From Lentisphaeria bacterium (lineage in GTDB: Bacteria; Verrucomicrobiota; Lentisphaeria; JABSQK01; JAWLHB01): a DNA stretch of 64,000 nucleotides. The position numbers were made by a program, and so were the translations under genes. Each line of letters begins with the position of its first letter. Positions within the stretch are counted from its first letter, which is position 1. Under the pieces are notes generated by a model. That model worked only from the letters and a program-made list of their open reading frames with translations. It did no database searches and was not told the origin of the DNA. The DNA lies in contig JAWLHB010000018.1 in assembly GCA_041690595.1 (NCBI GenBank), positions 62,001-126,000 of the forward strand, in the 5' to 3' direction. Shown one piece after another: positions 4,494-61,773 of the stretch.

Positions 4494-4730
4494 ATGGCAA
4501 AGCGTAAGAAAAGACATGAACAGGAAGAAACACTGATGACTCTGGCCGATGTTGCGGTTTATCTGCAAATCGCCGAGCGTACCGTTTATCAGTGGGCACA
4601 ACGGGGGCAGATTCCCAGCTTCAAGCTCGGGAATGTGTGGCGCTTCAAGCGTACCGATCTGGAAAACTGGATCGAGCATCGCAAACGCGAGACTCCCCGC
4701 GCGATTCAGGAAATCCTGGCCGTCGACTGA
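4494..4730 (+). CDS. Excisionase-family (HTH_17) DNA-binding protein, MAD1-like
   Basis: LMTLADVAVYLQIAERTVYQWAQRGQIPSFKLGNVWRF matches the excisionase/HTH_17 pattern. AGGAG RBS lies upstream of the ATG at 4494. Confidence 0.88.
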   Translation: MAKRKKRHEQEETLMTLADVAVYLQIAERTVYQWAQRGQIPSFKLGNVWRFKRTDLENWIEHRKRETPRAIQEILAVD

Positions 4731-4750
4731 GTCGTCAAGCGAGATAGGAC

Positions 4751-4772
4751 AAGCGGCGACCTGGCGCCGCTT
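4751..4772 (+). terminator. GC-rich hairpin downstream of the HTH gene (possible weak terminator or processing site)
   Basis: AAGCGGCG-acctgg-CGCCGCTT forms an 8-bp stem; there is no real U-tract. Confidence 0.3.
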
Positions 4773-4941
4773 ATCGATGTCGCGAAGCGCACCGCTCCTT
4801 GGTGGCCACAAGTAGCTGATTCTGGCTTGTATTCCTCTCCACAACCTTTATGTTGCGGAGAAGAGAGTCTGATGGAGCTGGGGCTGGCGCCATGTTGGCG
4901 TGTGTCGGCTGGATCTGACTCTCCCCGTGGAGGAGAAGCAG

Positions 4942-7900
4942 GTGCGGCAGGTAGTGGGTGGCGAAGAGGTGGTGACGGGCCGCGGAGCTTTGGCCGCTCC
5001 GGTAAAGCCGGCGAGGGGATGGTTGCGCCTGGCGACCGGCATTCTGATCTACGTTGAAGAAGCCCGCATTCTCGGGCATAAGCTCGTCCTGCTCCTGCAC
5101 CGGGACTGGCCGGAGGCGGTCCTGGACGATGCGGACGGCAAGCAACAGCACTGGTGGATCGATGAGTGGCGGACTCGTCCCGCTCTGCGGCCCACCATCG
5201 AGTGGATGACGCGGCAGCTGCGGCAGGCTCTGCGTGAGGTGGGGCTGGCACGCGCGGCGAATGAAGCGCGCTGCATCTTCACGATGCGGGATGACATCGA
5301 TCCTCCCCGAGCGGCGGGGCTGTTGCCGGCCTCGGCCTGGGAATGCGAACTGGCGTGTGGAGCGGCCCCGGCATCCGTTGTGGAGGACTTTCTGCGCCCG
5401 CGATGGGTGAAGCCCGATCCCGGGCATGCCCATCGCCTGGAGTTGCTGCAGGCCGATGACGAACGGACGGTGCTGCAGGCGGCAGATGCGGCGGGGCTCA
5501 TGGAACGCTGGCGTTGCCGGCCGGTGGAACTGGCGGGAGAGCCGTCCCGGCAGCGGTGGGACTTTCTGGCCCCGCGCCTCGAACGGGCCACTCTCCATCC
5601 GCACCTGGCGACGGTACGCCTGGAGTGGCTGGAGTGGCTCGCCGTCGAACACATCCGGTGGCAGGACACCCTCAGCCTGGCCGCACTCCACGAGGTCGTC
5701 CATCTGACCGTTGCCGAGAAGCTGGAGGCCGTCCTGCAGGTGACGCAGGCCCTGGCGGCTCTGCACGACCTCGGGATTGTGCATCAGCAGGTCGATGCCG
5801 AGCGGGTGTTGATGGCGGACGACGGTGCCTGGCTCCACGATCTGGCCCTGCCGCTCGACCGCGACTTTCAGGCGGACGCCCTGCCGGCGCAGGATATCAC
5901 GGCGCTTGGCTCCCTGGCGGTGACGCTCTTCGCGCCATGCGCGGCGGCCTTGCCGGAAGTGCTGCAGGCATTCCTGGGGCAGTGTCGGCGGGGAGAAACC
6001 GGGTCGCTGGCGGCTCCTCTCTTCGAAGAGCGGTTGAGGCGCTGTGTGGAGCTGCCGGAACCGGCCGATTGGAGGCCAACCGCGGTGGCGGATACGGAGC
6101 CCGATGCGTTATTGGTTCCGGGAGAGCAGGTGGGCGATTATCGGGTGGTTCGCCACCTGAAGACGGGCGGCTTCGCGCAGGTGTATGAAGCCATGCACGA
6201 TCTCCAGGCCCTGCACTGCGTGCTCAAGGTGTATCACGCGTCGGCCGGTACTGACGATCTTCGTGAGGAGTTCCGCCTGCTGCGGAGCCTGCACCACCGT
6301 CACATCGGCCGGGTCTGGTGGAACGGGCGTCTCCCGGACGGCCGCCCATACCTGGTGTTGGAGTATCTGGAGGGTGAGGATCTGAGTCGCTTCGCATGGG
6401 GCGACGGCCAGTTGTCACTGGCGACTCTGCGCCAGATTGGGCTGGAGATCCTCTCGGCGCTCGACTATCTGCACGACCCCCTGGCGAGGGATGGCGCCTC
6501 GCAGGGGCGGGCGCTGTGTCATCGCGATGTGAAGCCAGGCAACATCCTGCTCGTACCTGGACGCGGCGCGGTGCTCATCGACTTCAATGTGGCGAGGGTG
6601 GCAGGCCGGCAGGATGGCTTCACCGGCACTCATCGGTATACGCCGCCGGAAGTGATCGAGGGCCGTCGGGCGTGGGATCCTTCGTGCGACCTCTTCGGGC
6701 TTGGTGTGACGCTCTATGAGTTGGCCTGCCGGCGCTTCCCCTTCGAGGGAGATGCACCCTCGCTGGAGAAGCCACCGCGGCCGCCCGAGGCGCCACCCGG
6801 GCAGCCGGCGTTGCCGGAAGCCTGGCGCTCCTTTCTGCGGAAAGCGGTTCAGCCGTCGGCAAGTCGGCGATTCACCGCCGCCTCGCGGATGGCGGCCCAA
6901 TTGCGCGCCCTCCCCGAGACAGCGGATAAGGCGGCACCCACCGCGACGGCAGGAGATCCGATAGCGACGCTGCTGACGGAGTGGGCCGCCGGCGCAACGT
7001 GGGCCGTGGATCGCCTCCATGTGGCGGGCTCCCTTGAAGAGTGGCTGGCAACCTGTGGTGACGGCGCCATTGTTGTGACGGGCCCCATGGGGAGCGGGCG
7101 TCGCACCTTGCTGCGGTACCTGTCGCGGCGATGCCCTTCCCATCGCGCCATCAACGCGGTAGGTTCGCCCGAACGCCTTGAACTGCTGACCGGCGCTGAG
7201 GGGCCGGTGATGCTGGCATGCGCCGAAGATGATGCGCCGGCCGCCATGGCGCGCGGCGGCGACAATGACCTCCTGATCAACCTTGGCAGGCGCGATCTCC
7301 TGGTGGGATGCGAGGGGGCGCCCCCTATGGCGGCACGGCTCCTGGAGAAGGTGGTGGAGTTGGCCCGGGACGCCGCTTCGACCATTTCTGGGGGGCTGCT
7401 GACCGCCAACCTGGCGGCGCTCTCGGATCCGCTGATTCGTGAGCGGCTGCTGGGCGCTCTTCGGCGCAGTTTCTGGAGCAGCCGCGAATCCCTCACCATC
7501 GGGCGGCTGGTCGGGGAATTGGTGCGGATGTTGGGGGCGGATGTTGCCGACCAGCCGCTGGCCATGCTGGAGCGTGCCTGGTGGCAGGGCTGGGGCGATG
7601 CGGCCTCCCCTTCCACGCTCGCCAGTCGGGAACTCGCGATGCAACTGCGCTATCTGCCGGTGGACCGGTTGCCGGCGCTGCGGGGGAGCCCTTGGGCGGA
7701 ATTGCTGCAGCAACGCTGGTGCGGGGCAACAACGACAGAGGAGCGGCGGCAGGTGGCGCGTTGGATCTCTTGCTGGCTCGCCATGGAAGGGGAGCCGGGC
7801 GGCGTCTTCGAGGACAGGCGCATCGCGGATTTCACGCGCCTGTTGCGTGGCGATCCTGAGCTTCTCGATGCAGCCACCAGGATGCTGAGAAGCTTCGCCG

Positions 7901-8094
7901 GTGAGTCCAAGTCGCGGATCGAACTGGCGAGGCCGGAGGATCCATGGGCTGAGCCGGCCCCCGCCGCCATGATCGTGCGGCCGGGTGCGCAGGCACCCAT
8001 CGTGCTGACGCTGCCTCTCTACGAATGGCTGTGCGACACGGCTCCGAACAGCGCGACGGTGGATGCGTTGGACCTATGGGAGGTGAAGCCATGA
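4942..8094 (+). CDS. Multidomain Ser/Thr protein kinase: degenerate N-terminal domain, pseudokinase, intact kinase and degenerate P-loop domain (MAD6-like)
   Basis: Intact Hanks kinase motifs KTGGFAQVY, VLK, HRDVKPGNIL, DFN, GTHRYTPPE and DLFGLG. An upstream degenerate kinase (IVHQQVDAERVL, DITALG) and a later Walker-A-like GPMGSGRRT. The GTG at 4942 follows GGAGGA; the ORF track opens at 4900. Confidence 0.85.
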   Translation: MRQVVGGEEVVTGRGALAAPVKPARGWLRLATGILIYVEEARILGHKLVLLLHRDWPEAVLDDADGKQQHWWIDEWRTRPALRPTIEWMTRQLRQALREVGLARAANEARCIFTMRDDIDPPRAAGLLPASAWECELACGAAPASVVEDFLRPRWVKPDPGHAHRLELLQADDERTVLQAADAAGLMERWRCRPVELAGEPSRQRWDFLAPRLERATLHPHLATVRLEWLEWLAVEHIRWQDTLSLAALHEVVHLTVAEKLEAVLQVTQALAALHDLGIVHQQVDAERVLMADDGAWLHDLALPLDRDFQADALPAQDITALGSLAVTLFAPCAAALPEVLQAFLGQCRRGETGSLAAPLFEERLRRCVELPEPADWRPTAVADTEPDALLVPGEQVGDYRVVRHLKTGGFAQVYEAMHDLQALHCVLKVYHASAGTDDLREEFRLLRSLHHRHIGRVWWNGRLPDGRPYLVLEYLEGEDLSRFAWGDGQLSLATLRQIGLEILSALDYLHDPLARDGASQGRALCHRDVKPGNILLVPGRGAVLIDFNVARVAGRQDGFTGTHRYTPPEVIEGRRAWDPSCDLFGLGVTLYELACRRFPFEGDAPSLEKPPRPPEAPPGQPALPEAWRSFLRKAVQPSASRRFTAASRMAAQLRALPETADKAAPTATAGDPIATLLTEWAAGATWAVDRLHVAGSLEEWLATCGDGAIVVTGPMGSGRRTLLRYLSRRCPSHRAINAVGSPERLELLTGAEGPVMLACAEDDAPAAMARGGDNDLLINLGRRDLLVGCEGAPPMAARLLEKVVELARDAASTISGGLLTANLAALSDPLIRERLLGALRRSFWSSRESLTIGRLVGELVRMLGADVADQPLAMLERAWWQGWGDAASPSTLASRELAMQLRYLPVDRLPALRGSPWAELLQQRWCGATTTEERRQVARWISCWLAMEGEPGGVFEDRRIADFTRLLRGDPELLDAATRMLRSFAGESKSRIELARPEDPWAEPAPAAMIVRPGAQAPIVLTLPLYEWLCDTAPNSATVDALDLWEVKP

Positions 8095-9791
8095 TGCCAG
8101 GCAGGACTGAACTCGCCCAGCTCTGGCGGCAATATCTGGCTGCCGGGGAGCCGGGAATCTGGCATTGGCAGACTGGACGGATGACACATCAGCCGGTCGA
8201 AGCTCCACCTTCCTTCCGGCAAGCCCAGATGGCACTCTGTTGCGGGCTCGACGGTACCGCCATGAGCCAGCTCGATGGTCGGCAGCCGGAGGTGCGCCGC
8301 TGGCGGGAGGCGTATGAAGGATGGTTGGCGTCAGCCGTGGGCATGTCGCGGCAACTGGAAGCGTTGGCGGTGAACGATGTGCGGGTGCTGGCGCCCGATG
8401 GTTCGCCGGCGGCCCTTCTGCGCAGCCCTCTTCATCCACTTCGCGTGCGGGAAGGGGCGCCGTCGGCACTGGTCGTGCCACTGGATCCGGTACGCGGCGG
8501 CTGCTACGCCGGGGAACTGGATGGCTGGGAGCTGTTTACAGTTCAGGAGGAAGGCGACCTGGCGCTCGATCCCGTTCCGTTGCTGCGCGACTACGCGGAA
8601 CGCCACGCCTGGCTCGATGAGATTGTCGTGAATCTGGCGACTGTGGGTGTATTGGAAACCGGCTGGCTGCAGCCGTTGCGCGAGCTGGCGGAGACGGGCA
8701 GTCAGCGGTGGCGGATGCGCTTCTTTGTGGCGGACGACTCTCGCGCGGCCCTGCCGACGGAGAGCGCCTTCCAGGTGTCGGCATTAGCGGATCTGGCAAA
8801 GGAGAGTTTTCCGGCGCACTTGGCCGTGATCGCGGGAATCACCACGCGTCGTCCCGCGCTCTTGCCGGTAGATGGAGCACGGTGGAAGGCGCATCGCCAA
8901 TGGTTGAGCCGACCACGTACCCCAACCTCCCAGGCGCGTTGGCAACACCACCTGCCGGGGCGGGGGACCGTGGCAACGCTGGCCGATTCCCTGACCGCGG
9001 GTTGCCTGGCGGGGCAGCTGACGGCGGCTGTGCCGGGGATCGATGTACGGGTGAAGCCGGAAGCCCGATCGCTGGTCGAGCTGCTGCGATTGCAGGTGGA
9101 CTGGACGATTGTCGCCGATCCCTGGGTGGGGGCGGAGCTTTTCGAGGCTCCCGCCACGGTCATGGCCGATGCGCCACTCCTTCTGCGGCGCGGAACCGGC
9201 GGAGAGAGCCCCCACCTGCTTTCGCGCCTCCCGCGGCTGGTCTGCGATCTCTTCGCGCGTCAACTGGCTGGTTGCGGAATGGAAGAGCTGGCGGAGCCAC
9301 TGCTGCTGGCGGCCCGTCGGTTGGCTCCAGACCTATTCCTGCGGACCGGACTGGATGGGCTGGCGGCGGCAGGCACCGCGGCGCGTCTCATGGAGTCCCT
9401 CGGCGTGCACGCCGCGAGCGCGGAAGCCTGCGGCACACACGGGGTGCGGGTGCTCCTTCTGGAAGACGGTTCGGCGGCTGCCTTCAGCTGGCGGACGCAG
9501 GTCACTGAACTGCCGTCGAATGCTCGCACATGGCTGATCGTACCCGAGGAACCCTGTGTCTGCCGTCAAGCCGGCGGGTCGATGGTCGTGATCGGCGGCG
9601 GCGGATTGCGAGCTCTTTGCCAGGGTGGCGACCTCTCGCTCCTGCTGGCCGCATGGCGCAAACCGGCTCCCCCGCCGCTGCTCTATCGACGACCTGCGCA
9701 CGAAACGTTGCGGGTCGCTGAAGAGCGCGCGAAATACGGGACGAAGTCGGATGCTCCAGCGCCCGACACGGACGCCGATCTGGACCATTAA
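8091..9791 (+). CDS. Hypothetical protein resembling the non-ATPase region of MAD8/DndH-type defence proteins
   Basis: ATGA overlap with the kinase stop. Motifs RSPLHPLR, YAERHAWLDEIVVN, FPAHLAVI and DWTIVADPWVGAELFE recall MAD8/DndH family blocks (from memory, unverified). Confidence 0.55.
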   Translation: MMPGRTELAQLWRQYLAAGEPGIWHWQTGRMTHQPVEAPPSFRQAQMALCCGLDGTAMSQLDGRQPEVRRWREAYEGWLASAVGMSRQLEALAVNDVRVLAPDGSPAALLRSPLHPLRVREGAPSALVVPLDPVRGGCYAGELDGWELFTVQEEGDLALDPVPLLRDYAERHAWLDEIVVNLATVGVLETGWLQPLRELAETGSQRWRMRFFVADDSRAALPTESAFQVSALADLAKESFPAHLAVIAGITTRRPALLPVDGARWKAHRQWLSRPRTPTSQARWQHHLPGRGTVATLADSLTAGCLAGQLTAAVPGIDVRVKPEARSLVELLRLQVDWTIVADPWVGAELFEAPATVMADAPLLLRRGTGGESPHLLSRLPRLVCDLFARQLAGCGMEELAEPLLLAARRLAPDLFLRTGLDGLAAAGTAARLMESLGVHAASAEACGTHGVRVLLLEDGSAAAFSWRTQVTELPSNARTWLIVPEEPCVCRQAGGSMVVIGGGGLRALCQGGDLSLLLAAWRKPAPPPLLYRRPAHETLRVAEERAKYGTKSDAPAPDTDADLDH

Positions 9792-11666: not shown

Positions 11667-14267
<2,601 letters not shown>

Positions 14268-51411: not shown

Positions 51412-54400
51412 TCACTGCTTCAGAAGCCGTGTGACCTTCTCTACGCAGGCACTCATGTTTTCCCGTAGCTCGAAGACCCAGAAGCGAACAACTCGCCACC
51501 CGGCAGCCTGCACAGTGACGTCACGCCAGAGATCGTCGGCTTTGCGCCGTCCGGCGGAAGCATCCCAGTGGAACTGTACGCCATCCACCTCGATGTCGAT
51601 CTTGTGCGACGGAATGGCCAGGTCGAGGTAGCGGCCGACGAGGGGGTACTGGGAGACGGTATCGATACCTGCTTGCCGCAGTGCCTCGTACAGGGCCCGC
51701 TCCCAAGGAGACTGAAAATCGACACCTGCTGGAGGGCGAGGGGGCTGGATGTCCGCGGCCAAAGCCTGCAGGTGAGCTATGCCGCTCTCTTGGCAGGCCT
51801 TTCGATTGCCGACGACGTGCAGAACAGCACGAGCCCGGCTCGCAGCGACATTCATCAGATTGCGGTTCTCGGCATCACCGATCGCCCACCTTGCCCCCTT
51901 CGGGAGGCCAGGCTGGAACACGGGGCTGAGGTAGATGACATCGCATTCGCCGCCCTGAAAGGCGTGTGCGGTTGAGCAGACGATACCCAGCGCTTTACTC
52001 TGCTTCTCCGTAATCCTGTGGCTGAGCAGCTGCCCAATGCGTTGGGCTTGCTTCACGAACGGGGAGATGATGCCCACGCTTCCCTGAAAGTCCTGCGACA
52101 CCAACTCCGCAACCAGTTCGCGGATGCGCTCGGCTTCGATCTGACAGGTAGCGCCCCTGCCTGCCCCGACTGCCTCACCTTCGACATCGGTCCAGAGGAT
52201 ACCGGCTTTGGCGCCGGCAGGCACTTTCAGCTTGCCTTCGTCCGTCAGCACGCGCAGGGTGCCACTGTAGAAGGTGTTGTTGCAGTATGTCGCGATGTCT
52301 GAGTGACAGCGGAAGTGGTCCTTCAGCTGGACCCGGGACAAGGCCTCGAATGGCGCATTGTCGGCAGCATCGAAGAGGCTGAACTGCTTGTAGTCATAGG
52401 CAACCCCCTCGCGCGCCGTCAGTCCATGCCGCTCCATGAGCAGGCGGTTGCGCGTACTGTGAAGCGTGATGACGGGCCGGAACTGGTGTGGATCGCCGAT
52501 GATCACGGCGCGCTTCGCGCGAAAGAGCACTGGTAGAAGGGCGGGGATTTCACACTGGCTGGCTTCGTCGATGATGGCCACGTCTACCAGGCCTGCACCA
52601 AACGGCAGCGCGTGGCGGGCGGAGAGGGCCGTGACCGCCCACATCGGGAAGGCGCGCAGCAGACCAGCGATCTCTTCCTCAAAGAAGCGCTCCCACTGCA
52701 TGCGCGCATCGTCAGAGAACTCGGTTGCGTTGCGGTTGGCGAGGATGCCGCGAATCTGCATCAGCCGGTGGCGCTGGTCCTGGCTGAGCTCAGAGCTGCG
52801 ACTGGCCAGCATCGCCTTGAGCAGAGGTTTCGCTTCGTCAGCGATCGCCGTATTGAGGCGCTGAAATTCTGCTGTCAGCTCGGTGAGCGGCTCGCGCTGC
52901 CGTGCCTCGTCCTCAAGGGCCGCGATCTTGTGTGTCAGCTGCGCTAGGTCACCGCAGCACGTGAGCCGCTCCGTGCAGACACGCAGGTCATCCAGCAGCT
53001 CGGGCAACGGGGCCATGGGACGCACTGCTGTCTCGATGGCTGCCAGAAGCTGCCGTTGCTCATCCAGGTACGCCTTCAGCTTCTTCCGCTTGAGCAAGAT
53101 CCAGCGCCACCGCTGCAGGTGGCCAAGCAGGCCTGCGGTTGCCGCCTGGTCGGGGGGCGAGAGTGTTTGCAGTGCTTCCGCGACCGCATGATAGTCCCCT
53201 GAGCGCTGCTTCGCGATCGCCGCAACACCTGCCGGTAGCAGTGCCTCCAGATCCTCACAATCATGGCTGACGCGACCGAGTTCAACCTCGATCTGACTCC
53301 AGCGCTCAGCGCGTTCCATAACCTTCTCGCGGGTCGCAGTCAAGGCACTGACGCGATTCGAGCGGTGCTGCAACTCCTGACCGTCACTGTGAGCATGCAC
53401 ATTGTTGAGCAGGATTCTAACGGCCTGGTGCCAGGTGAAGGTCGTGCCGCTCTCCTTGTCGGCTTGGCGAAAGATCAGCGCGTCGCCGTCGACGAGATCG
53501 TTGGTGCGAGGCACGACGGCATCGATCGCCTTATGGTTCTTGCTCGAGAATACGGCTGTCTGGCGTTGCCATGTCAGGTTGGCCAGCAGTGCCGCGGCGA
53601 CCTGGGATTTGCCGGTTCCTGGCGGTCCTGTGATGACTGTCAGGTCGCCCTGGACTGCCGCCCGGACGGCGGCTTCCTGCTCATCATTCAGGGGCAGAAA
53701 GGGGGCGGCCACAGGGGGCTGTTCGCTCACCGGATCACCCTGCTCACGCAAGGGGGGGAAGCCGAGAAAGAGCGGACGAAGGCTGGTGCGGTTCAGCGCA
53801 CTGTCCGGCACCGCCTTGAGCTGCCGAAGCTCCCGCAGCAGCCCGGCGCTGTACTTGACGCGTTTGTCGGTATAGATGACGGCGCAGTTGTGGATGCCGC
53901 TTTCCAGCTTGCTCACATCCAGGATCGGCAGCGTGTGCGTGGGGTTCAGCCCTTCGCCCTTGATCAGGTTTCCGACGAAGGTTCGCAAGGCGTTGACGAC
54001 TGCCTGCAGCGACTGGCGGGAAAGCAGGCCGACAGCATCCTCCGCCTCGTCATCCTTCGCCAGCAGCCTGGCGTGGCGGAGAAACGGCTGGATCTGCTGC
54101 TTCTCCAGGTACTTCTGCAACCACTCGCTGTTCAGGTCGGCGTCGTCGAAATCGATTGCCAGTGACAGGCGATTGGACTCCGGCCGTTCCAGCAAGACCG
54201 GGATACAGCAGATCGGCAACAGAAGCGTGTCCTTGGCCTTCTTCCCTTTGCTGGAGAAACGCACTGCATGGACGGGGTAGCCGATATAGATCCCGGTGTT
54301 CTGGTCCGCGGAAAGTGCCTCCCGGAGGAAAGGTGCATGGTCGGGCAGCGTGGGGATGCGCAGCGTCGGCGACCCAGGGCTGTCACCCTCCGGCCACCAG

Positions 54401-54942
54401 GATCCGACAAGGTAGGGGACCATGAAACGCTGGTTCTGCTGCTCGGCGTACATCACCGTGGATGGACGCTCGTCCAGACGCACACAGTCGATGTAGTAGT
54501 TGACGGCACGGCGGAATACAGCCCAGGGTGAGTCAGCATCGCGAAGCTCGGCGGGCGTTGCTTCAGTGGGTCTGGAGGAGAGGCTGTCACCCCATTCGAC
54601 GGTGGCCGGAGCAACAGGAACCACAGGAGACGTGGCGTCGGGGCGTCGGTTTGGCGCGACCGCAGTGGCCATAGACGTTGCACCCGCGGCAGGTGCAGGG
54701 GAGAGGGGGCGTTGCGGAAGTTCTGGGGGGGAAAGCATGTCGCGACGCTTGCGCAGGCCTTCCTTCGTCAGCCGCCATCCATTGTTGTCGCTGGTGATCA
54801 GCTCCCGAGCCAGCAGCACGCGTAGCTCTTCTGTGACGCCGCGTAACCCCAGATGCTCACCACGTTCTCGGATCTCCGACATGCAAAGGGCACTCCCGTC
54901 CCGCGGCCAGCACTGCAGCAGAATTTCAGTCTTGTCAGCCAT
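51412..54942 (-). CDS. UPF1/DNA2-like SF1 helicase with N-terminal wHTH, internal coiled coil and C-terminal Vsr/DUF559-like endonuclease
   Basis: GPPGTGKS, DEASQ, GDPHQ, HFRCH, GIISPF, TAHAFQG and NVAASRA motifs. C-terminal SPWE...LDLA...IEVDGVQFH...RD...GWRVVRFW. Confidence 0.92.
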   Translation of the reverse strand: MADKTEILLQCWPRDGSALCMSEIRERGEHLGLRGVTEELRVLLARELITSDNNGWRLTKEGLRKRRDMLSPPELPQRPLSPAPAAGATSMATAVAPNRRPDATSPVVPVAPATVEWGDSLSSRPTEATPAELRDADSPWAVFRRAVNYYIDCVRLDERPSTVMYAEQQNQRFMVPYLVGSWWPEGDSPGSPTLRIPTLPDHAPFLREALSADQNTGIYIGYPVHAVRFSSKGKKAKDTLLLPICCIPVLLERPESNRLSLAIDFDDADLNSEWLQKYLEKQQIQPFLRHARLLAKDDEAEDAVGLLSRQSLQAVVNALRTFVGNLIKGEGLNPTHTLPILDVSKLESGIHNCAVIYTDKRVKYSAGLLRELRQLKAVPDSALNRTSLRPLFLGFPPLREQGDPVSEQPPVAAPFLPLNDEQEAAVRAAVQGDLTVITGPPGTGKSQVAAALLANLTWQRQTAVFSSKNHKAIDAVVPRTNDLVDGDALIFRQADKESGTTFTWHQAVRILLNNVHAHSDGQELQHRSNRVSALTATREKVMERAERWSQIEVELGRVSHDCEDLEALLPAGVAAIAKQRSGDYHAVAEALQTLSPPDQAATAGLLGHLQRWRWILLKRKKLKAYLDEQRQLLAAIETAVRPMAPLPELLDDLRVCTERLTCCGDLAQLTHKIAALEDEARQREPLTELTAEFQRLNTAIADEAKPLLKAMLASRSSELSQDQRHRLMQIRGILANRNATEFSDDARMQWERFFEEEIAGLLRAFPMWAVTALSARHALPFGAGLVDVAIIDEASQCEIPALLPVLFRAKRAVIIGDPHQFRPVITLHSTRNRLLMERHGLTAREGVAYDYKQFSLFDAADNAPFEALSRVQLKDHFRCHSDIATYCNNTFYSGTLRVLTDEGKLKVPAGAKAGILWTDVEGEAVGAGRGATCQIEAERIRELVAELVSQDFQGSVGIISPFVKQAQRIGQLLSHRITEKQSKALGIVCSTAHAFQGGECDVIYLSPVFQPGLPKGARWAIGDAENRNLMNVAASRARAVLHVVGNRKACQESGIAHLQALAADIQPPRPPAGVDFQSPWERALYEALRQAGIDTVSQYPLVGRYLDLAIPSHKIDIEVDGVQFHWDASAGRRKADDLWRDVTVQAAGWRVVRFWVFELRENMSACVEKVTRLLKQ

Positions 54943-57694
54943 CGTCGATTTTCCGCATGATGTTGACGAAGCCCGCCAGCGAGCCCCGGCTCTTCAGGAA
55001 GCTTCGTAGCTGTAGCGATAGTTCCAGCATCAGCTTTGCGCGATTTTGGGTCGAGGTGTTCTGGTTGGCATCTTGCGTTGCACGGCGTAGCGGCTCCCTG
55101 ATAGTCCAGAGCAGAGCCAGCAGGCGGGCGAGTAGCTCATCATCCGAGCACAAAGTTCTACATTGTCTTGGAGTGAAGAATAATGTCTGTTGGCGAAGGT
55201 GATCAGCGCATCGCTGCACCCTTTCGTCGGAGTACTGGAGAAACTCGGTATCGTAGCGTCGTCGACGAAGCATGAACAGAAGCGCGATGAGCGAATCTTT
55301 CATCCGGTTGCCGAAGTTGGGCCTATGCATTTCATACTCGATCAGTCTGCACAATCTTAGAATCAGAAATCGCACCGTGTCCGAGTCGGCGTGCTGAAGT
55401 GCATCAGGCCGATAGGTAACGAGCTTGCGCAGACCGTTTGCATACCAGCCGACGCTGTCCACATCTCGATCATCAAACACATCCAAGATCGCTAGTAACA
55501 TGGCTTGGTATTCGTCAGGATGGTGAAAGAGCTGGCCGCAGGCTGTCAGCTCTTCCTGCGCAAGGGAGCCTGGCTCCTGCTGGAGCTTGTCGACCAGATA
55601 CATCCGCAGCTTCGGAAAGGTCTCGCCTTGGTACGTCCAGGCGATAGCACGAATGAGCTTCAACCTGTTATCTGGAATCTGGGCAAAGGCGTAGTCCTCC
55701 TGCAGCTTAGTCAGATAGTCCTTGGCCTTCAGGCGGTCTGGGGGGAGCCCGTCGGTCATGCTGGACCCGAACGTATTCTGTCTTGCCAGGCTGTCCTTTC
55801 GGTTGGGGTCGTACCGTACGGCGCCGCACCGCTGGAAAAAGTAGTCCCCCAGCACCTTACCTAACGACTTCTCTTTGCCGCCAAGCAGAAGCGACGTCTC
55901 CAAATACCGATCCACATACGGCTCGAACAACTCCCACAGCGCCGGGTCGGGCTCTACGTCGGGCATGTCCGGCGGAAAGCTTCGTGGGCGCTCCCGGTTC
56001 AACGACTCCAGCGTCTTGTGAGTCGTTTGCATGCGGCTCCAGTCAAGCAACACATACCCGCCGGTAAACAGACGCTTATTGTGTACCTCAATGCGCGCGT
56101 GTCCCCGCGCAGGCTGCTGCGTTGGCCGAAGAACCAGCTCCTCCTGACGATCCGTGCTCACCTTGAAGACCTGTTTCAGCTCACGCAGGCGTTCTTCCTG
56201 CTGCATGCGCAGGAGAAAGCCCACGTGCTGCTCATGCTTGTTCAGGGAGAAGCCCGATTGATCATCTCCCACGTATGTGCTGTCACCATCCACCTCGGCA
56301 TCGGGTATAAGCTGTTTCGCGATGATGTCCTCAAACGTTGCCGACCCAGGATCCTTGTCCTGGACAATGATGTCCAGCTGGCGTAGCTGGTCGAGATAGG
56401 TAGGCTGCCCGAGTTGCGAGCGCTGGGCGAGCAGCACGCAGCCGCGGGCGACCATGTGGTCCGGGACACCGTCAGCAGCCTCGGTAGCACGCAGCATCGG
56501 CTGGGCAGGAAAGAATGCTTGATCCAGCTGGCGGCTGATGGTCGCTCCCAAGGTCGTGTCGTCGATGGGCAGGCAACTACCGGCGCCGTGCAGGAGAAAG
56601 CCGTCAGGCTTGGTCTGGTGGATCAGCTTCTTCAGCGCGACTGTCACCTGTGATAGCCACGAACTGCCGTCGTTACTCTTCTGGATGCCGAGAAGCTTGG
56701 CTACCTCCTTGGCCGCGGTGTCTGGCAGTTCATGGATCACCTCCCCAACTACCAGCGGCAGGTCATCCGGTGATATCTGCAGGTGCTGCCAGCCACGTTG
56801 TGTCGGCAGGAGGCAGGCTCGTTCGCTGGTGCCATTCGCTTTGGCGGACAGCAGCTTGTAGATTGCATCGCCCCCCAACGCGAGCGACCAGACAAGATCG
56901 CTGGTAGGGGGGATTGCATGGTAATCCAGCAGCCCTTCCGCCAGCACGAACGGCAATGGAAGAATCGGCTGGAAGGCACAGTTGTCGGCCCGGGGGAGAC
57001 GGCGGACCGGCACCAGGTAGCTTTGCCCTTCCCTGATGACCTGCTTCAGCCGAACCTTGCAGACGGTGATGCAGTCGTAGCGCACCTCGCATACGGCCAG
57101 GTGTTTGCCGTCGTACTGCTTGTGGAGATGCGCCGGCTGTGCTGCCCCCCAGGTCATGGCTGCCGCGATCGGCCGCCAAAGGAGCCGCGACTGTGGCCCC
57201 AGGGCCGCGAGCACATCCTCCTGGGCCCACTCATCCAGCGTATTGGGGACGGCCATCACCACCCGTCGCCTCGCCATGCTGTCGCGGAACGGCGCGAGGA
57301 AGCATTGCAGCAGATCGCGCACACGCACCTGGCGGTCAGCACCTTTGGCATCCTTATACGCATGCTCCCGTGTAGACTGCCCCATCAGGTAGCCATTGTC
57401 CTGAAGTACAGGCTCTTCACCCAGGAGATCCCACAGCTTCCACACCGGCAGTCTGGCTGCGTTACGGCCCACGCTCGCGTGCTGGCGCCAGCCATGACCG
57501 CAGTTCCATGGCGATGCCACAGACTCCGCATCGCACGCAGGGCGCAGGCCACGCTGCCAGGGCAGGACCACCAGGGGGCGGCTGTCCCCCCAACCTCGCC
57601 ACTCCACGGTCGCCAGGGGCGAATCAGCCTGCAGCAGGGGCTGCTGCCAGCTGTCCAAGTCGATGCCCATCACCGGTTGCAGATCGCTGTTCAT
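54935..57694 (-). CDS. Divergent Hsp70/actin-fold protein with a helical C-terminal region
   Basis: MGIDLD, VVMAVPNTLDE, RLLWRPIAAAM, LLHGAG and MVARGC occur in the order of the Hsp70 NBD motifs. Confidence 0.72.
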   Translation of the reverse strand: MNSDLQPVMGIDLDSWQQPLLQADSPLATVEWRGWGDSRPLVVLPWQRGLRPACDAESVASPWNCGHGWRQHASVGRNAARLPVWKLWDLLGEEPVLQDNGYLMGQSTREHAYKDAKGADRQVRVRDLLQCFLAPFRDSMARRRVVMAVPNTLDEWAQEDVLAALGPQSRLLWRPIAAAMTWGAAQPAHLHKQYDGKHLAVCEVRYDCITVCKVRLKQVIREGQSYLVPVRRLPRADNCAFQPILPLPFVLAEGLLDYHAIPPTSDLVWSLALGGDAIYKLLSAKANGTSERACLLPTQRGWQHLQISPDDLPLVVGEVIHELPDTAAKEVAKLLGIQKSNDGSSWLSQVTVALKKLIHQTKPDGFLLHGAGSCLPIDDTTLGATISRQLDQAFFPAQPMLRATEAADGVPDHMVARGCVLLAQRSQLGQPTYLDQLRQLDIIVQDKDPGSATFEDIIAKQLIPDAEVDGDSTYVGDDQSGFSLNKHEQHVGFLLRMQQEERLRELKQVFKVSTDRQEELVLRPTQQPARGHARIEVHNKRLFTGGYVLLDWSRMQTTHKTLESLNRERPRSFPPDMPDVEPDPALWELFEPYVDRYLETSLLLGGKEKSLGKVLGDYFFQRCGAVRYDPNRKDSLARQNTFGSSMTDGLPPDRLKAKDYLTKLQEDYAFAQIPDNRLKLIRAIAWTYQGETFPKLRMYLVDKLQQEPGSLAQEELTACGQLFHHPDEYQAMLLAILDVFDDRDVDSVGWYANGLRKLVTYRPDALQHADSDTVRFLILRLCRLIEYEMHRPNFGNRMKDSLIALLFMLRRRRYDTEFLQYSDERVQRCADHLRQQTLFFTPRQCRTLCSDDELLARLLALLWTIREPLRRATQDANQNTSTQNRAKLMLELSLQLRSFLKSRGSLAGFVNIMRKIDDG

Positions 57695-57695
57695 C

Positions 57696-59438
57696 CTACC
57701 GCACCAGCTCCAGCAGGCCAGTTGCATGTTCACGCAGAAGCTTCATCAGATCCCGGCCCCATTCGTCCGGCTTGCCCGGCGCCCGCAGACCGTGGACCTG
57801 CGTCTCCTCATGCTCCTCGCAATGCAGGGCATCGATGCCGCTGTAGGTGCCAGCATAGTCACTCAGCACCATGAGCCCGGCAAAGCGACACGGCACACTG
57901 TTACGCACTGCAGCTTTCTGGATGAGCGAGAGACGCTGGCTGGCGTCCCGGCACATGACCTGCAGATCCTCCTGCCACTGCGTGCGCAGTTTGCTTGAGT
58001 GCACGCCCCAGACCATGAGGCAAAGGTCTTGACGGTCGCGATGGTGAGAAAGGATCGAGAAGTGAATAGCAAAATCCACGCCCAGCACACCGACCCACGG
58101 CGCCAGATCGGTGCCCAGGTATTTTCTCTTCTCGGTCATCCCCGCGGGCTCCAGGCATTCGGCGACAACCTGGCGCCCCCGGTGCTCGATGATCAGCGGT
58201 CCTGGCCAGTCCACATCGGCCAACCAACGACCGTACTCGGGGCGCTGGCGAATCCACAGCTGGTGGTGATGCATACCGAGACGGCGTTGGTCATCAGTGA
58301 CCAGCCGGAGTACTGCGGCGGCGAGGTAGAGACGCACCGTCTCGCTCCACAGGCGTGACTGCCATGGCCAGACCGCGTCGGTGTCGTCTTCCTGTTGGAC
58401 AATACGCAGGTACCACTGCCACAGCTCCCGATACCCCGGGTCGTGTTGGAGCACGTAGTTGGGGGAAGGCACAATCTGCAGAGCCCCGACCGCCCCGAAC
58501 AACGGCTCCCGGAGCTGCCGCTGACAACGGCGCTGAAAAGTCTCAACCAGCTTATACTTCTCGTGTGTGTGGTGGCGGCGGTTGTCATGCAACCACTGGC
58601 CCGCCAGAACGACGCAGCGGCGTAGCATGTCCTTGAGAACCCGGTTCTCCAGCGTGTCGAAGTTCTCCTCCCGCTCGACGGCGAGGATGCGCTGCCGCCC
58701 GCCGGCTTTCTCGCTAGCCGTGCGGCCAGGCTGCCGGACCAGCCACTGCAGGCAAGCGGCGTCCACTTGCTGCACGCGCCCGATGGGCGCTTTCTGCCGG
58801 ACCCGGCTGAGCACGCGCCGGGGGTGCTCACACAACCGGAAGAGGCGCGTCGAAAACTCGTTTGCGACGCGCACAATGAGGCCCATCATCGGCTGGTCGA
58901 CACTGTTTTCCAGGCGCTCCGGCAGCTCGCGCCAAGGCAGGGGCAGCAGCGCCCTGTTCCCGGCGTTCGTACCAGACTCGCGGGCAATTGCCTGCTCTTC
59001 GGCGGTCCACCGTAGTTCCTGGGCATTCCGAACAAGATTGGAGAGAAAATCGTAGAGGGCCAGGTCTGGCGGCTTAGTGCTGACCTGAGCGTAACTGCGT
59101 ATGCGGGAGCGAGTAGGTCTCGCCAGATATCCATGCTGAATGATGTCCCACGTAGCCTGGCCACGAGAGTCCTGTACATGCAGGGTCTCCCCTGTAGTTG
59201 TGGGCCAGGGAAGATCGTATGACGAAAGCAGCTCAGTTCGCGTGCCAAATGGTGCACACCGCCGAGGAAGCCCAGCAGACGCGCCCGAAATCATGGGCTC
59301 GGCACCCTTTGGTAGGAGCGCAATTGCTGCTCCTCCCTCACATGTCTGTGGCAGAGGGCACCCAACGTCGCTCATCAGCTCCCGGATCAACTGCCAAGGC
59401 TGTTCCAGGACCCTAAGCAGGGACACTCTGCGCTCCAT
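57696..59438 (-). CDS. DUF2357 McrC-like protein
   Basis: FDTLENRVLK and PNYVLQHDPGYRELWQW blocks; lies directly downstream of the McrB-like gene. Confidence 0.85.
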   Translation of the reverse strand: MERRVSLLRVLEQPWQLIRELMSDVGCPLPQTCEGGAAIALLPKGAEPMISGASAGLPRRCAPFGTRTELLSSYDLPWPTTTGETLHVQDSRGQATWDIIQHGYLARPTRSRIRSYAQVSTKPPDLALYDFLSNLVRNAQELRWTAEEQAIARESGTNAGNRALLPLPWRELPERLENSVDQPMMGLIVRVANEFSTRLFRLCEHPRRVLSRVRQKAPIGRVQQVDAACLQWLVRQPGRTASEKAGGRQRILAVEREENFDTLENRVLKDMLRRCVVLAGQWLHDNRRHHTHEKYKLVETFQRRCQRQLREPLFGAVGALQIVPSPNYVLQHDPGYRELWQWYLRIVQQEDDTDAVWPWQSRLWSETVRLYLAAAVLRLVTDDQRRLGMHHHQLWIRQRPEYGRWLADVDWPGPLIIEHRGRQVVAECLEPAGMTEKRKYLGTDLAPWVGVLGVDFAIHFSILSHHRDRQDLCLMVWGVHSSKLRTQWQEDLQVMCRDASQRLSLIQKAAVRNSVPCRFAGLMVLSDYAGTYSGIDALHCEEHEETQVHGLRAPGKPDEWGRDLMKLLREHATGLLELVR

Positions 59439-61773
59439 ATCGCGTCTCCCTGTTAACCCCGCTCCACTGGAAGACCGGCAACTCTTTTGCTGCACCAAAC
59501 GCACTCAGGAGTTCTTTGTCCTCGGTTTGCTGGATGAGCGCCTTCATGGCGTCGAAGGCCACATGTACACCCTCAGCTCCAGTGTCCAACCCCAGCAGCT
59601 TCGGGATAAGCTTCTGTTCGATCTGGTCCGCCAGCGCGTGATTGAACTGCTCCGGTTGCTGGCTACCCGGGTAAGCAGCGACGTACGCCTCCACCGCATG
59701 CTGAATGCGGTAGCCGAACGGCCGGCCGATGCCCTGCATAGCACCATTCGCCTTGCCCAACGCGTCGCGAACCCGCTGGGCCTGGTCGGCCGGCATGGCG
59801 TGCTGCCGCCATGATTCCCAAGTCGACGCCTTCAGCCATTCGCTCCGTCCGAGACTTTCCATCTTCGGTGCGCGTTCAGTGGGTTTCTCCGGCTTACCGA
59901 AGCGCAATACATTGGCCCGGTCCACCACCTTGGGCGACAGCATCTGCGTCGTTTCGTCTTCGTTCATGGTACCCGCAAACAGAATGTTGGAGCCCACAAA
60001 CAAGCGCGTGGAGTGCTTCTTCGAGCCGACACCATTGCCATTGCCCGTTTCCGCAAAGGGGCCGCATTCGATCTCGATTTCGGCTTGCCGCCGTTTCTCG
60101 TCATCGCCCGGATCAAGTCCGCGCCGTACCTCCAGTTTGCTCAGCAGCTCGCTGAAATAGTACTCGATACGTGCCAGATTCATCTCGTCCAGCAGCACCA
60201 GCGCCAGCCCCTTCTGAAGGTCCCACTCAAGGGAGCCCTCCGCCGGCCTGCAGTTCCACTTATCCATCTGCCACAGCAGGCGGGCCAGCTCCGTCGCCTT
60301 GTAGCGGTTCTCCATGTAGTTGTAGAACCCAAACAAGTCCTGCGGGCCGTCCCATCGCGGCTGCACGGCCACATTCAGGAAGTGGATGCCCATGAAGTCC
60401 GCATACAGCCGCGGGAGCAGGCTCTTGCCGGTGCCGGAGATGCCGGCAAGCACTACCAGCGGCGATTGGTCGGCGATCTTCAGGCTCGTATGGAAGGCGC
60501 GTATCATGCGAGGGGAGAAGGCCAGCTCACGCTCCTGCAGCGCGTTCTCAAAGGCGCTCAGCAGCTCATCTTCGCCCTCGTGACTCCAAGCCAACGTCTC
60601 CTTCCCGGGCGTTATGTAGGGACGATGCAGGTCCTGTAGGCGCTTCTCCAGAGTCGGAGGCTCAACTGCCCGGCTCCAGTGTTCTAGCCGCTCAATGATC
60701 GCCTTATGCTGGCGCTCCGCCGCTTCCACAGCCGCTGCCAACTGCTTCAGTTCGGCCTGTTTACCACCAATCTGGCCCTGTAGCTCATGGCTCTTCTGAA
60801 TCAACTCCCGCTGCTCGCGCTCTGCGCGTTCTACCTTCTGCTTTAACTCCTCAAGTTGAGCTCGCGACTTCTCGATCTCCTCCCAGATTTCCGCAAGGCG
60901 CTTTTCGGATGTCTGAAGATCCAATTCCTTTTCATTCGTCAGTCTCTTCAGTGCGTCGAGACGGCCTGTAGCCAGCTCGCACTTCTCTTCAGTTGCCGTA
61001 AGGGTCGATGTGAGCTGGGACAGCCTTGCCTTACCATCCTCTAGCTCCGCCTGCAACGCACGGTTCTGTTGTTTCAGCGTGTGGTGCTCACGCGTAGCAC
61101 CATCCAAACGATCCTTGGTCTCCTGCAACTGTGCCCGCGATGTCTCGACGTCTTTCGATATCTCCGAAAGCTGCTTGCTGGCAGTCTGAAGGTCCAACTC
61201 CGCCTGATGCTTCTGCTTCTTCAGCTCTGCAACGGAGTTCTCGGCAGTCTGGATGTGCTCCTGCAAGCTATTGTGCTGCTCACGCAGGTCCTTCAGGTGG
61301 CGCTCTATAGAGTCTAGCTTTTCTTTTGAGTCGTTGCGGTCCTTGATCGTGTTCCGCAGTTCATCCTCCTCCTTCTGGCGCGCTTCCTGCGCCTTCATCA
61401 GTGCGGATTCTACCTCATCCAGAGCTTGGCGGGCGTTTTCGTGCTGGCTCTGTAGCTGTCCAATCTCGGAACGCAACTCGGCCAGCGTCATGCCGTTCTC
61501 CTCCAGCCACTGTTGCGCCTTTTCTGCCCGGTCCACCAGCTCCTGCTTTGCCTGTTTCTCGGCTCGATGGTCGCTCCTTAGCTGCTCCAGCGCCTGCCCC
61601 AGCCGCTCCTCTTCCGAAGAAAGGGCGCCCACCCGGCCCTCCAGCTCCTTGAGTTCCTTCCACTTGGGCATCTGCTGGCACAGGCGGAGGTACCAGGCGA
61701 ACATGCAAGCAGCAGCTATCAACGTAAAGCATGCTGCCCCGAGGGCGAGGTAGAATATCTGTACGGATGTCAT
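59413..61773 (-). CDS. McrB-family AAA+ GTPase with N-terminal TM helix and long coiled coil
   Basis: LAGISGTGKS Walker A, VQPRWDGPQDLFG, LLDEMNLARIEYYFS Walker B and GTMNEDETT...LSPKVVDRA (NxD signature). Confidence 0.92.
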   Translation of the reverse strand: MTSVQIFYLALGAACFTLIAAACMFAWYLRLCQQMPKWKELKELEGRVGALSSEEERLGQALEQLRSDHRAEKQAKQELVDRAEKAQQWLEENGMTLAELRSEIGQLQSQHENARQALDEVESALMKAQEARQKEEDELRNTIKDRNDSKEKLDSIERHLKDLREQHNSLQEHIQTAENSVAELKKQKHQAELDLQTASKQLSEISKDVETSRAQLQETKDRLDGATREHHTLKQQNRALQAELEDGKARLSQLTSTLTATEEKCELATGRLDALKRLTNEKELDLQTSEKRLAEIWEEIEKSRAQLEELKQKVERAEREQRELIQKSHELQGQIGGKQAELKQLAAAVEAAERQHKAIIERLEHWSRAVEPPTLEKRLQDLHRPYITPGKETLAWSHEGEDELLSAFENALQERELAFSPRMIRAFHTSLKIADQSPLVVLAGISGTGKSLLPRLYADFMGIHFLNVAVQPRWDGPQDLFGFYNYMENRYKATELARLLWQMDKWNCRPAEGSLEWDLQKGLALVLLDEMNLARIEYYFSELLSKLEVRRGLDPGDDEKRRQAEIEIECGPFAETGNGNGVGSKKHSTRLFVGSNILFAGTMNEDETTQMLSPKVVDRANVLRFGKPEKPTERAPKMESLGRSEWLKASTWESWRQHAMPADQAQRVRDALGKANGAMQGIGRPFGYRIQHAVEAYVAAYPGSQQPEQFNHALADQIEQKLIPKLLGLDTGAEGVHVAFDAMKALIQQTEDKELLSAFGAAKELPVFQWSGVNRETRYGAQSVPA

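Follow-up and report, generated by a model that had tools for sequence, protein, structure and literature searches.

The closest described relatives of the locus reported here are MADS, an operon of eight genes (mad1-8) in Pseudomonas aeruginosa SMC4386, and those DndFGH systems in which a NERD domain, an inactive kinase and an active serine/threonine/tyrosine kinase are fused to DndF. In its authors' model MAD6, MAD7 and MAD8 are mandatory, and mad2-4 and mad6-8 were found to be required for defence (bioRxiv 10.1101/2023.03.30.534895, cited here, like the papers below, for the portions of text available to us). Other features of MADS are phage resistance with m6A self-marking, an N6 methyltransferase (MAD2) with its specificity subunit (MAD5), and an accessory ATPase-nuclease pair (MAD3/MAD4). 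DndH is described as having a constant core of eight domains, namely helicase-like, helix-turn-helix (HTH), two beta-sandwiches, target recognition domain (TRD), inactive methyltransferase, restriction endonuclease (REase) and HerA, and all three DndFGH genes are almost always kept (PMC10853773). The same paper puts forward a backup role, as suicidal effector, for the DndF-fused kinase; the available portions of the MADS preprint, PMC13662399 and PMC10853773 contain no experimental demonstration of a role for the kinase fused to MAD6/DndF. The locus that we compare with these systems consists of three genes on the plus strand of a 64,000-nucleotide stretch of DNA (the window) from contig C18 of the 8.1-Mb, 97% complete genome of a Lentisphaeria bacterium: an HTH gene (4494-4730) and, after a gap of 211 bp, two long open reading frames, ORF2 (4942-8094) and ORF3 (8091-9791).

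Sequence comparison indicates that this locus is a reduced descendant of MADS/DndFGH from which the methylase, the specificity subunit and MAD7 are gone, as are the two nuclease sites and the two ATPase motifs. Like MADS it begins with a mad1-like HTH gene, followed in order by genes derived from MAD6 and MAD8; unlike MADS, it lacks mad2-5 and mad7, the nuclease and Walker A motif of its MAD6-like protein appear dead, and its MAD8-like protein is cut to about a third. This arrangement had been put forward in an earlier interpretation made from the DNA letters alone (the sequence-only reading), and is borne out here by hidden Markov models (HMMs), alignments, a tree and searches for the missing genes. 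By its ancestral sites the locus would be unable to mark, cut or pump DNA, and a single Hanks-type kinase (kinase-2) is the only predicted enzyme. The reading of its function that we favour, tentatively and at a little less than an even chance, is that of a sensor-plus-kinase abortive defence module, in which a former backup would now be the sole effector.

The MAD6/DndF-type protein

ORF2 starts with GTG at 4942, preceded by a Shine-Dalgarno sequence (GGAGGAG, 4929-4935), and runs without internal stop to a TGA at 8092-8094; its exact 1050-aa product is present in the protein collection. Against the NCBIfam MAD6 model it scores 210 bits (cut-off 460), short of the full MAD6 architecture, and against NCBIfam PglW 96 bits (cut-off 990), far from a full-length PglW. 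Its best relatives among 1.84 billion representatives are two proteins that are likewise shortened, P0005 (1011 aa) and P0006 (814 aa); a full MAD6 comes next. Together, ORF2, P0005 and P0006 (the reduced trio) align with 12 full-length MAD6 proteins at an hhalign probability of 100 over 849 columns. The layout of ORF2 (NERD, pseudokinase, kinase, P-loop kinase, lid, alpha+beta) is that of the kinase-fused DndF. PglW of type-2 BREX also carries a tandem pseudokinase-kinase after NERD and a sensory C-terminus (PMC12839542), but the C-terminus of ORF2 is of the DndF type and the locus contains no BREX genes.

Reading the catalytic columns of the trio against 14 intact MAD6 proteins, we find that kinase-2 (aa 392-657, 6115..6912; Pfam Pkinase E 4e-35), a Ser/Thr kinase predicted to be active, has K429, E443, H527-R528-D529, K531, N534 and D547-F-N, in columns that match all 14, and that every one of these columns is retained in P0005 and P0006 as well. 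A MAD6 kinase-2 HMM places ORF2 at the top of the genome's ORFs (279.6 bits, against 216.6 for the next). Elsewhere in the protein the ancestral sites are gone. In the NERD nuclease remnant (aa 1-160, 4942..5421) the columns E66/D68/E81/K83, invariant in the 14 intact proteins, read Y/E/L/R; in the shortened kinase-1 pseudokinase (aa 165-370, 5434..6051; MAD6 kinase-1 HMM domain E 9.5e-14) the HRx motif reads HQQ, the catalytic Asp of kinase-1 being variable already among intact MAD6. The P-loop remnant (aa 669-800, 6946..7341) has GPMGSGRR in place of the Walker A motif GxxGxGKT and a deletion of the Walker B segment, R720 and R721 standing where K and T are invariant in 14/14 intact proteins, so that the intact Walker A of DndF is missing. 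The remnant of the lid and alpha+beta C-terminal region (aa 801-1050, 7342..8091) has lost the zinc cysteines and kept the column of MAD6 R1056 (R835). The claim that only the kinase site of this protein is conserved agrees with these columns.

Identities tell the same story by degree. Relative to P0203, the nearest intact MAD6, ORF2 is 47% identical in kinase-2 and 16% (NERD), 22% (kinase-1), 21% (P-loop) and 20% (lid and C-terminus) in the other domains. The corresponding figures between P0203 and three more distant intact MAD6s are 41-45% for kinase-2, 33-35% for NERD, 29% for kinase-1, 45-58% for the P-loop and 29-39% for lid and C-terminus, and between P0203 and its close sister P0007 they are 54-68% in every domain. 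Across the nearest intact MAD6s the NERD part of ORF2 reaches 14-16% identity, and its P-loop part 18-21%, compared with 45-68% among intact MAD6. Constraint is thus domain-specific: kinase-2 is conserved as between intact MAD6 pairs, and conservation in the remaining domains is roughly half of that. A homologue search with the C-terminal part of ORF2 returned only ORF2 itself, and Atlas matches at 0.79-0.81 are no more than leads.

The MAD8/DndH-like fragment

ORF3 (566 aa, 8091..9791) has its ATG at 8091, a clear Shine-Dalgarno sequence (GGAGGTG) at 8079-8085 and a TAA at 9789-9791, and shares an ATGA with the end of ORF2 (8091-8094); the two coupled, uninterrupted frames described in the sequence-only reading are therefore as stated. 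An HMM built from the middle part of 35 MAD8 proteins ranks ORF3 first among the 12,540 ORFs of at least 200 aa in the genome (E 1.1e-4, against 0.19 for the next). The match comprises four collinear segments and scores 20.6 bits, where the best of 301 null sequences reached 1.2 bits, and it equates aa about 36-446 of ORF3 with MAD8 residues about 570-1130. HMMs of the MAD8 N-terminal, nuclease and ATPase parts did not match ORF3, in which no [ED]xK occurs anywhere; the D, E and K columns of the MAD8 nuclease are retained in 35, 34 and 34 of the 35 MAD8 proteins. On this evidence MAD8 appears to have been reduced in ORF3 to its middle portion, with the nuclease motif, the N-terminal part and the HerA motor gone. 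Similarity to MADS proteins hence extends beyond the kinase, as descent from MADS leads one to expect: ORF3 heads the MAD8-middle search and P0005 matches the MAD6 lid (E 7e-11). Two of the MAD8 homologues carry the source name DptH. The NCBIfam MAD8 model found no match in the genome, though the same model matched no positive control either; ORF3 had no match in the PADLOC, Pfam and NCBIfam libraries, and no homologues of it were found among longer proteins, in the Atlas or on plasmids.

Folded from its single sequence, ORF3 gave a predicted local distance difference test (pLDDT) score of 37, and folded from the MAD8 alignment, 60, with a low-confidence tail. The best Foldseek match of the model is the adenine methyltransferase M.BseCI (E 4.4e-4), and aa 154-381 superimpose on Rossmann methyltransferases (VIA Z about 12, root-mean-square deviation about 3, about 145 aligned). 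It is important to bear in mind that the model, being built on the MAD8 alignment, is not independent support. ORF3 is accordingly predicted to be the TRD and inactive methyltransferase module of DndH, a likeness to DndFGH that goes together with the want of modification genes. Missing relative to DndH are the front part (helicase-like, HTH and beta-sandwich domains), the REase in its active form and HerA/FtsK; missing relative to MAD8 is the C-terminal ATPase.

The HTH gene, the spacer and the missing genes

The first gene (4494..4730, 78 aa) encodes a MAD1-like, excisionase-type HTH protein that is likely a regulator. It scores 79.5 bits against NCBIfam antiphage_MADS1, a borderline result given the cut-off of 80, which we count as the first gene of MADS; it matches PADLOC mad1 at E 1e-8 and Pfam HTH_17 at E 3e-17. 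It is 67% identical to the mad1 of an intact MADS locus (L093) and 81% to the HTH of a second reduced locus (L092, below). We set aside a generic HTH-PTS regulator as its identity: matches at class level (6 of 350 other genomes) reach 47-60% identity, below the 67% of the L093 mad1, and lie within longer proteins (frames of 222-265 aa). A stand-alone paralogue, 69% identical, lies on contig C3 (L010:9876-10100, C3 about 297,880), with no MADS genes nearby. Strong hairpins follow that paralogue 3' (z -3.66), and the next gene is presumably involved in iron-sulfur assembly.

The spacer (4731..4941, plus strand) occupies the former place of mad2/mad5 and matches the gap of about 210 bp reported after the HTH gene; no MAD2 or MAD5 remnant was found in it. 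It contains an 8-bp hairpin (4751-4772) that does not exceed shuffled sequences (z -0.33), and the L092 spacer has a strong one 3' of its HTH gene (L092:2335-2430, z -4.15). With a hairpin 3' of this gene in both loci, transcription of the HTH gene may be separate from that of the kinase pair. Between 3990 and 5000 we detected neither a sigma-70 promoter nor a terminator.

A six-frame search of the locus with HMMs of MAD2 (4 proteins), MAD5 (6) and MAD7 (7) gave no significant match, in line with the claim that methylase and specificity genes are missing. MAD7 was not detected in locus or genome by PADLOC mad7, the L093 MAD7 or the 7-sequence HMM (best E 1), and the genome as a whole, 97% complete, yielded no orthologue of mad2, mad5 or mad7. 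The best genome matches of the MAD2 and MAD5 models are partial, on contigs C83, C69 and C5, and look like type I restriction-modification (R-M) subunits. A MADS system split across the genome was rejected, the PADLOC mad8 and mad2 matches being read as FtsK-type, ATP-binding cassette (ABC) and type I R-M proteins. For a MAD3/MAD4 pair there is no room in the locus, and the mad3 model matches generic ABC ATPases genome-wide and 14/14 controls. Nor is the three-gene F-G-H operon of DndFGH present, since the F-like gene runs directly into the H-like one through the ATGA overlap, without a DndG/MAD7 equivalent between them. On several defining features the locus thus falls outside both MADS and DndFGH, though descended from them.

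Type I R-M-like genes were seen at L026:851-7038 (C83) and L025:2877-10180 (C69); those on C83 adjoin an ATPase-nuclease and UvrD-like pair that we take to resemble Gabija.

A second locus and a single origin

One of seven metagenome loci, L092, carries an HTH gene, a spacer, the P0005 gene and an ATGA-coupled gene in the order of the locus described here. The contig ends 175 aa into the coupled gene, which matches the same MAD8 HMM (E 4e-8), starts at the same MAD8 position as ORF3 and has in common with it a deletion after the HPL motif. The three-gene arrangement, which might have proved peculiar to one genome, thus recurs. When 30 kinase-2 domains (27 from 63 scored rows plus three class-level MAD6) are placed in a tree, the reduced trio forms one clade (99/99) within a 17-row MAD6 group (100/100), and a quicker 47-row tree agrees. 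The nearest to the trio by path are P0007, P0203 and L094, the branching order within the 17-row group being unsettled. P0005 was flagged for odd composition, but compositional attraction is unlikely because GC-rich intact MAD6s (L095, L096) group elsewhere. The trio also has a PEPADW linker in common. These results point to a common single origin of the three reduced kinases.

For HTH and kinase-2 alike, an intact mad1-2-5-6-7-8 locus, L093, is one of the closest relatives; L095 is a mad2-5-6-7-8 locus, and L094, L096 and L097 carry intact-type MAD6 on short contigs. The L093 locus (L093:5018-20658), a MADS without mad3/mad4, is directly preceded by a gene for a 530-aa protein, which we take to be a phosphatase fused to an ADP-ribosylglycohydrolase.

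Beyond L092 the family is sparse. Full-length MAD8 occurs in 3 of 350 other genomes of the class and in none of the 14 of the same order, and the MAD6s that go with it are not close to the trio; these three genomes (L126, L127, L128) have mad6-7-8 loci with two different MAD6 lineages. Our own genome was the only one with ORF3 among 41 genomes, the only one with kinase-2 among 351 (seven candidates scored per genome) and the only one with the trio profile among 401 (two candidates per genome, the intact MAD6 of G214 going unlisted), all three being weak negatives. A scan of genome contigs gave 64 loci with a best identity of 36%, none with an HTH match or an ORF3 match at E <1, and none of 50 candidates on viral contigs was confirmed. 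The MAD6 kinase cassette is also fused to other C-terminal parts in P0009 (a ZorD-like Snf2 helicase), P0010, P0019, P0032 and P0036, which suggests that the cassette moves between defence proteins.

Selection on the reading frames

Given the base composition, a frame would stay free of stops with a probability of 1.5e-6 over ORF3 and of 2e-8 over the 771 codons of ORF2 outside kinase-2, and the parts downstream of kinase-2 stay open though the kinase would not require it. Four sediment runs, all of one study, supplied low-depth contigs of related strains from which variants were taken, and the counts that follow are among the variants listed: 40 of 135 for the locus (29 in ORF2, only one of them in kinase-2) and 40 of 49 for ORF3. 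ORF2 has 16 non-synonymous and 13 synonymous changes and ORF3 23 and 17, making 39 and 30 when pooled, with no stops. The pooled ratio of non-synonymous to synonymous polymorphism (pN/pS) is 0.47-0.57 (p 0.002-0.014, calculated on these two genes alone), and 0.42-0.50 for variants in at least two runs. Indels in variant contigs were left uncounted; they are net in-frame (+3, +6) or compensating (+1/-1), the latter gone at 88% likeness, as was a single-base gap at 5957 in a contig that fits only 5942-5973. A pooled ratio near 1, which would have spoken for neutral drift, is not what we see, and constraint outside kinase-2 is real yet weak. Simple recent decay appears unlikely, because the same arrangement occurs in L092, the three reduced kinases form one clade, kinase-2 is conserved, pN/pS is about 0.5 and stops are absent.

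Slow decay of a MADS operon is a different matter. Here only kinase-2, perhaps useful alone, would be under selection, and the other parts would be drifting passengers. A pN/pS near 0.5 is weak, and the interval for ORF3 alone reaches 1.0-1.2; the GC content at second codon positions (GC2) of ORF3 and the ORF2 C-terminus ranks within the highest 3% among 1,862 long ORFs, as under relaxed constraint, and is accompanied by a shift to GC-rich amino acids; and each lineage has different deletions, the P-loop being entirely deleted in P0005 and P0006. Yet the end branches of kinase-2 are 0.6-0.84 substitutions per site long, over which ORF3 and all three kinase C-termini have stayed open, and the 69 listed variants hold no stop at a pooled pN/pS below 1, making us rate slow decay as improbable, the least probable of the three rivals that we weigh.

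Neighbourhood and the case for host signalling

The neighbours of the locus are genes for a glycosyltransferase, a mannosidase, a coenzyme A (CoA)-disulfide reductase and a copper ATPase, which do not make a defence island; a PADLOC scan of 27 neighbours gave no defence-specific match, only generic ones (ABC, methyltransferase, sigma-54), and no tRNA or flanking repeats were found around the locus. Dozens of Hanks kinases are encoded elsewhere in the genome, which makes a role in host signalling plausible. Under such domestication kinase-2 would phosphorylate a housekeeping or stress target, with ORF3 and the pseudokinase as regulatory scaffolds. Neighbours are housekeeping genes in both hosts and signs of mobility are wanting. 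The stand-alone HTH paralogue on C3, away from any MADS gene, fits as well. The divergence of kinase-2 is also about that of a core gene: a gene of the L092 host, which we take to be MreC-like, is 55% identical to its counterpart here and has a syntenic short-chain dehydrogenase/reductase gene, the identities of kinase-2 and the HTH being 51% and 81%; this fits long vertical retention with relocation. Against domestication, every component derives from a defence system, and the locus was not found in the 14 same-order genomes searched, a distribution patchier than that of a housekeeping regulator; on balance we consider it unlikely.

Three further observations concern the window. The stop of ORF3 overlaps that of the CoA-disulfide reductase/rhodanese gene converging on it (TTAA, 9788-9791), leaving no space for a terminator. 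The copper-type P-ATPase (11667-14267) has three tandem YHS domains. On the minus strand, 51415-61773 holds a cluster of an AAA_11/AAA_12 helicase, a DUF2357 protein and two large unannotated ORFs, which we presume may be a McrBC-like defence locus.

Discussion

If the locus is a sensor-plus-kinase module for abortive defence, the dead scaffolds would hold kinase-2 off until an invader gives a signal. We infer that ORF2 and ORF3 form a complex, because they are translationally coupled in both loci and derive from subunits of a single system. The recognition/inactive methyltransferase module of ORF3, or the lid of ORF2, may then bind either foreign DNA or an anti-restriction protein made by a phage; the parts left around kinase-2 are those that PMC10853773 proposes as sensors. 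Once switched on, kinase-2 might phosphorylate host proteins, as Stk2 does, so that the infected cell would be arrested or killed, and the HTH protein would regulate the locus. Methylase and specificity genes may have become dispensable after the nucleases died. Stk2 is a precedent for abortive infection by a kinase (PMC11676413) and resembles our locus in having a Hanks-type kinase as its only predicted enzyme and in the proposed mode of action; it is described there as a single kinase, whereas here restriction-derived scaffolds are attached, and the likeness drawn here is one of description.

Translational coupling in both loci would also suit an addiction module of the toxin-antitoxin kind, in which a toxic kinase-2 is neutralised by ORF3 or the pseudokinase and the HTH protein autoregulates. 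HipBST follows a similar logic with a different kinase fold. Strong conservation confined to the kinase and HTH, with weak constraint elsewhere, would be expected of such a module, but a folded recognition module of 566 aa and a C-terminal part of 390 aa exceed what an antitoxin needs, and no mobile element is present to be stabilised, for which reasons we think addiction quite unlikely.

A more specific form of the sensor-plus-kinase reading is that a restriction machine has turned guard, the disarmed MAD8 recognition module and the MAD6 scaffold acting as decoy for phage DNA or anti-restriction proteins, with one kinase as effector. Phage proteins that target DndFGH exist (PMC12345140), which makes a decoy conceivable; we would still call this version rather unlikely, if less so than any of the rivals above.

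Several observations weigh against the sensor-plus-kinase reading: beside the ordinary neighbourhood, the wealth of other Hanks kinases, the weak pN/pS, the GC2 values and the unequal losses already described, ORF3 and its L092 counterpart are only 29% identical over 130 aa, and the full arrangement is known from two loci, one of them incomplete. As to descent from MAD6, the sub-HMMs of that protein do not significantly match the terminal parts of ORF2 itself (N-terminal, E 0.02; C-terminal, E 0.06-0.1), the lid/C-terminal homology being carried by P0005, P0006 (E 0.004) and the joint trio alignment.

The reduced form is undescribed in the literature searched, which did not extend to the supplements of PMC10853773 and the MADS preprint, where such variants may be listed; in the available main text of PMC10853773 the words 'truncated' and 'degenerate' do not appear. 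With three proteins and two loci the family is rare, and the reach of the finding is accordingly limited. As the kinase is here isolated from every other catalytic part, however, the backup-effector proposal becomes directly testable with three genes (5.3 kb). Were the guard version true, the locus would represent a class of defence system not known before, with neither nuclease nor methylase, and a proposed backup effector would for the first time have become the only one. Should the locus protect against phage, it would show a route from a restriction system to a sensor-kinase system, one that present rules for detecting MADS and Dnd would overlook; should it fail to protect, it would be a clear case of a defence operon retained for another use.

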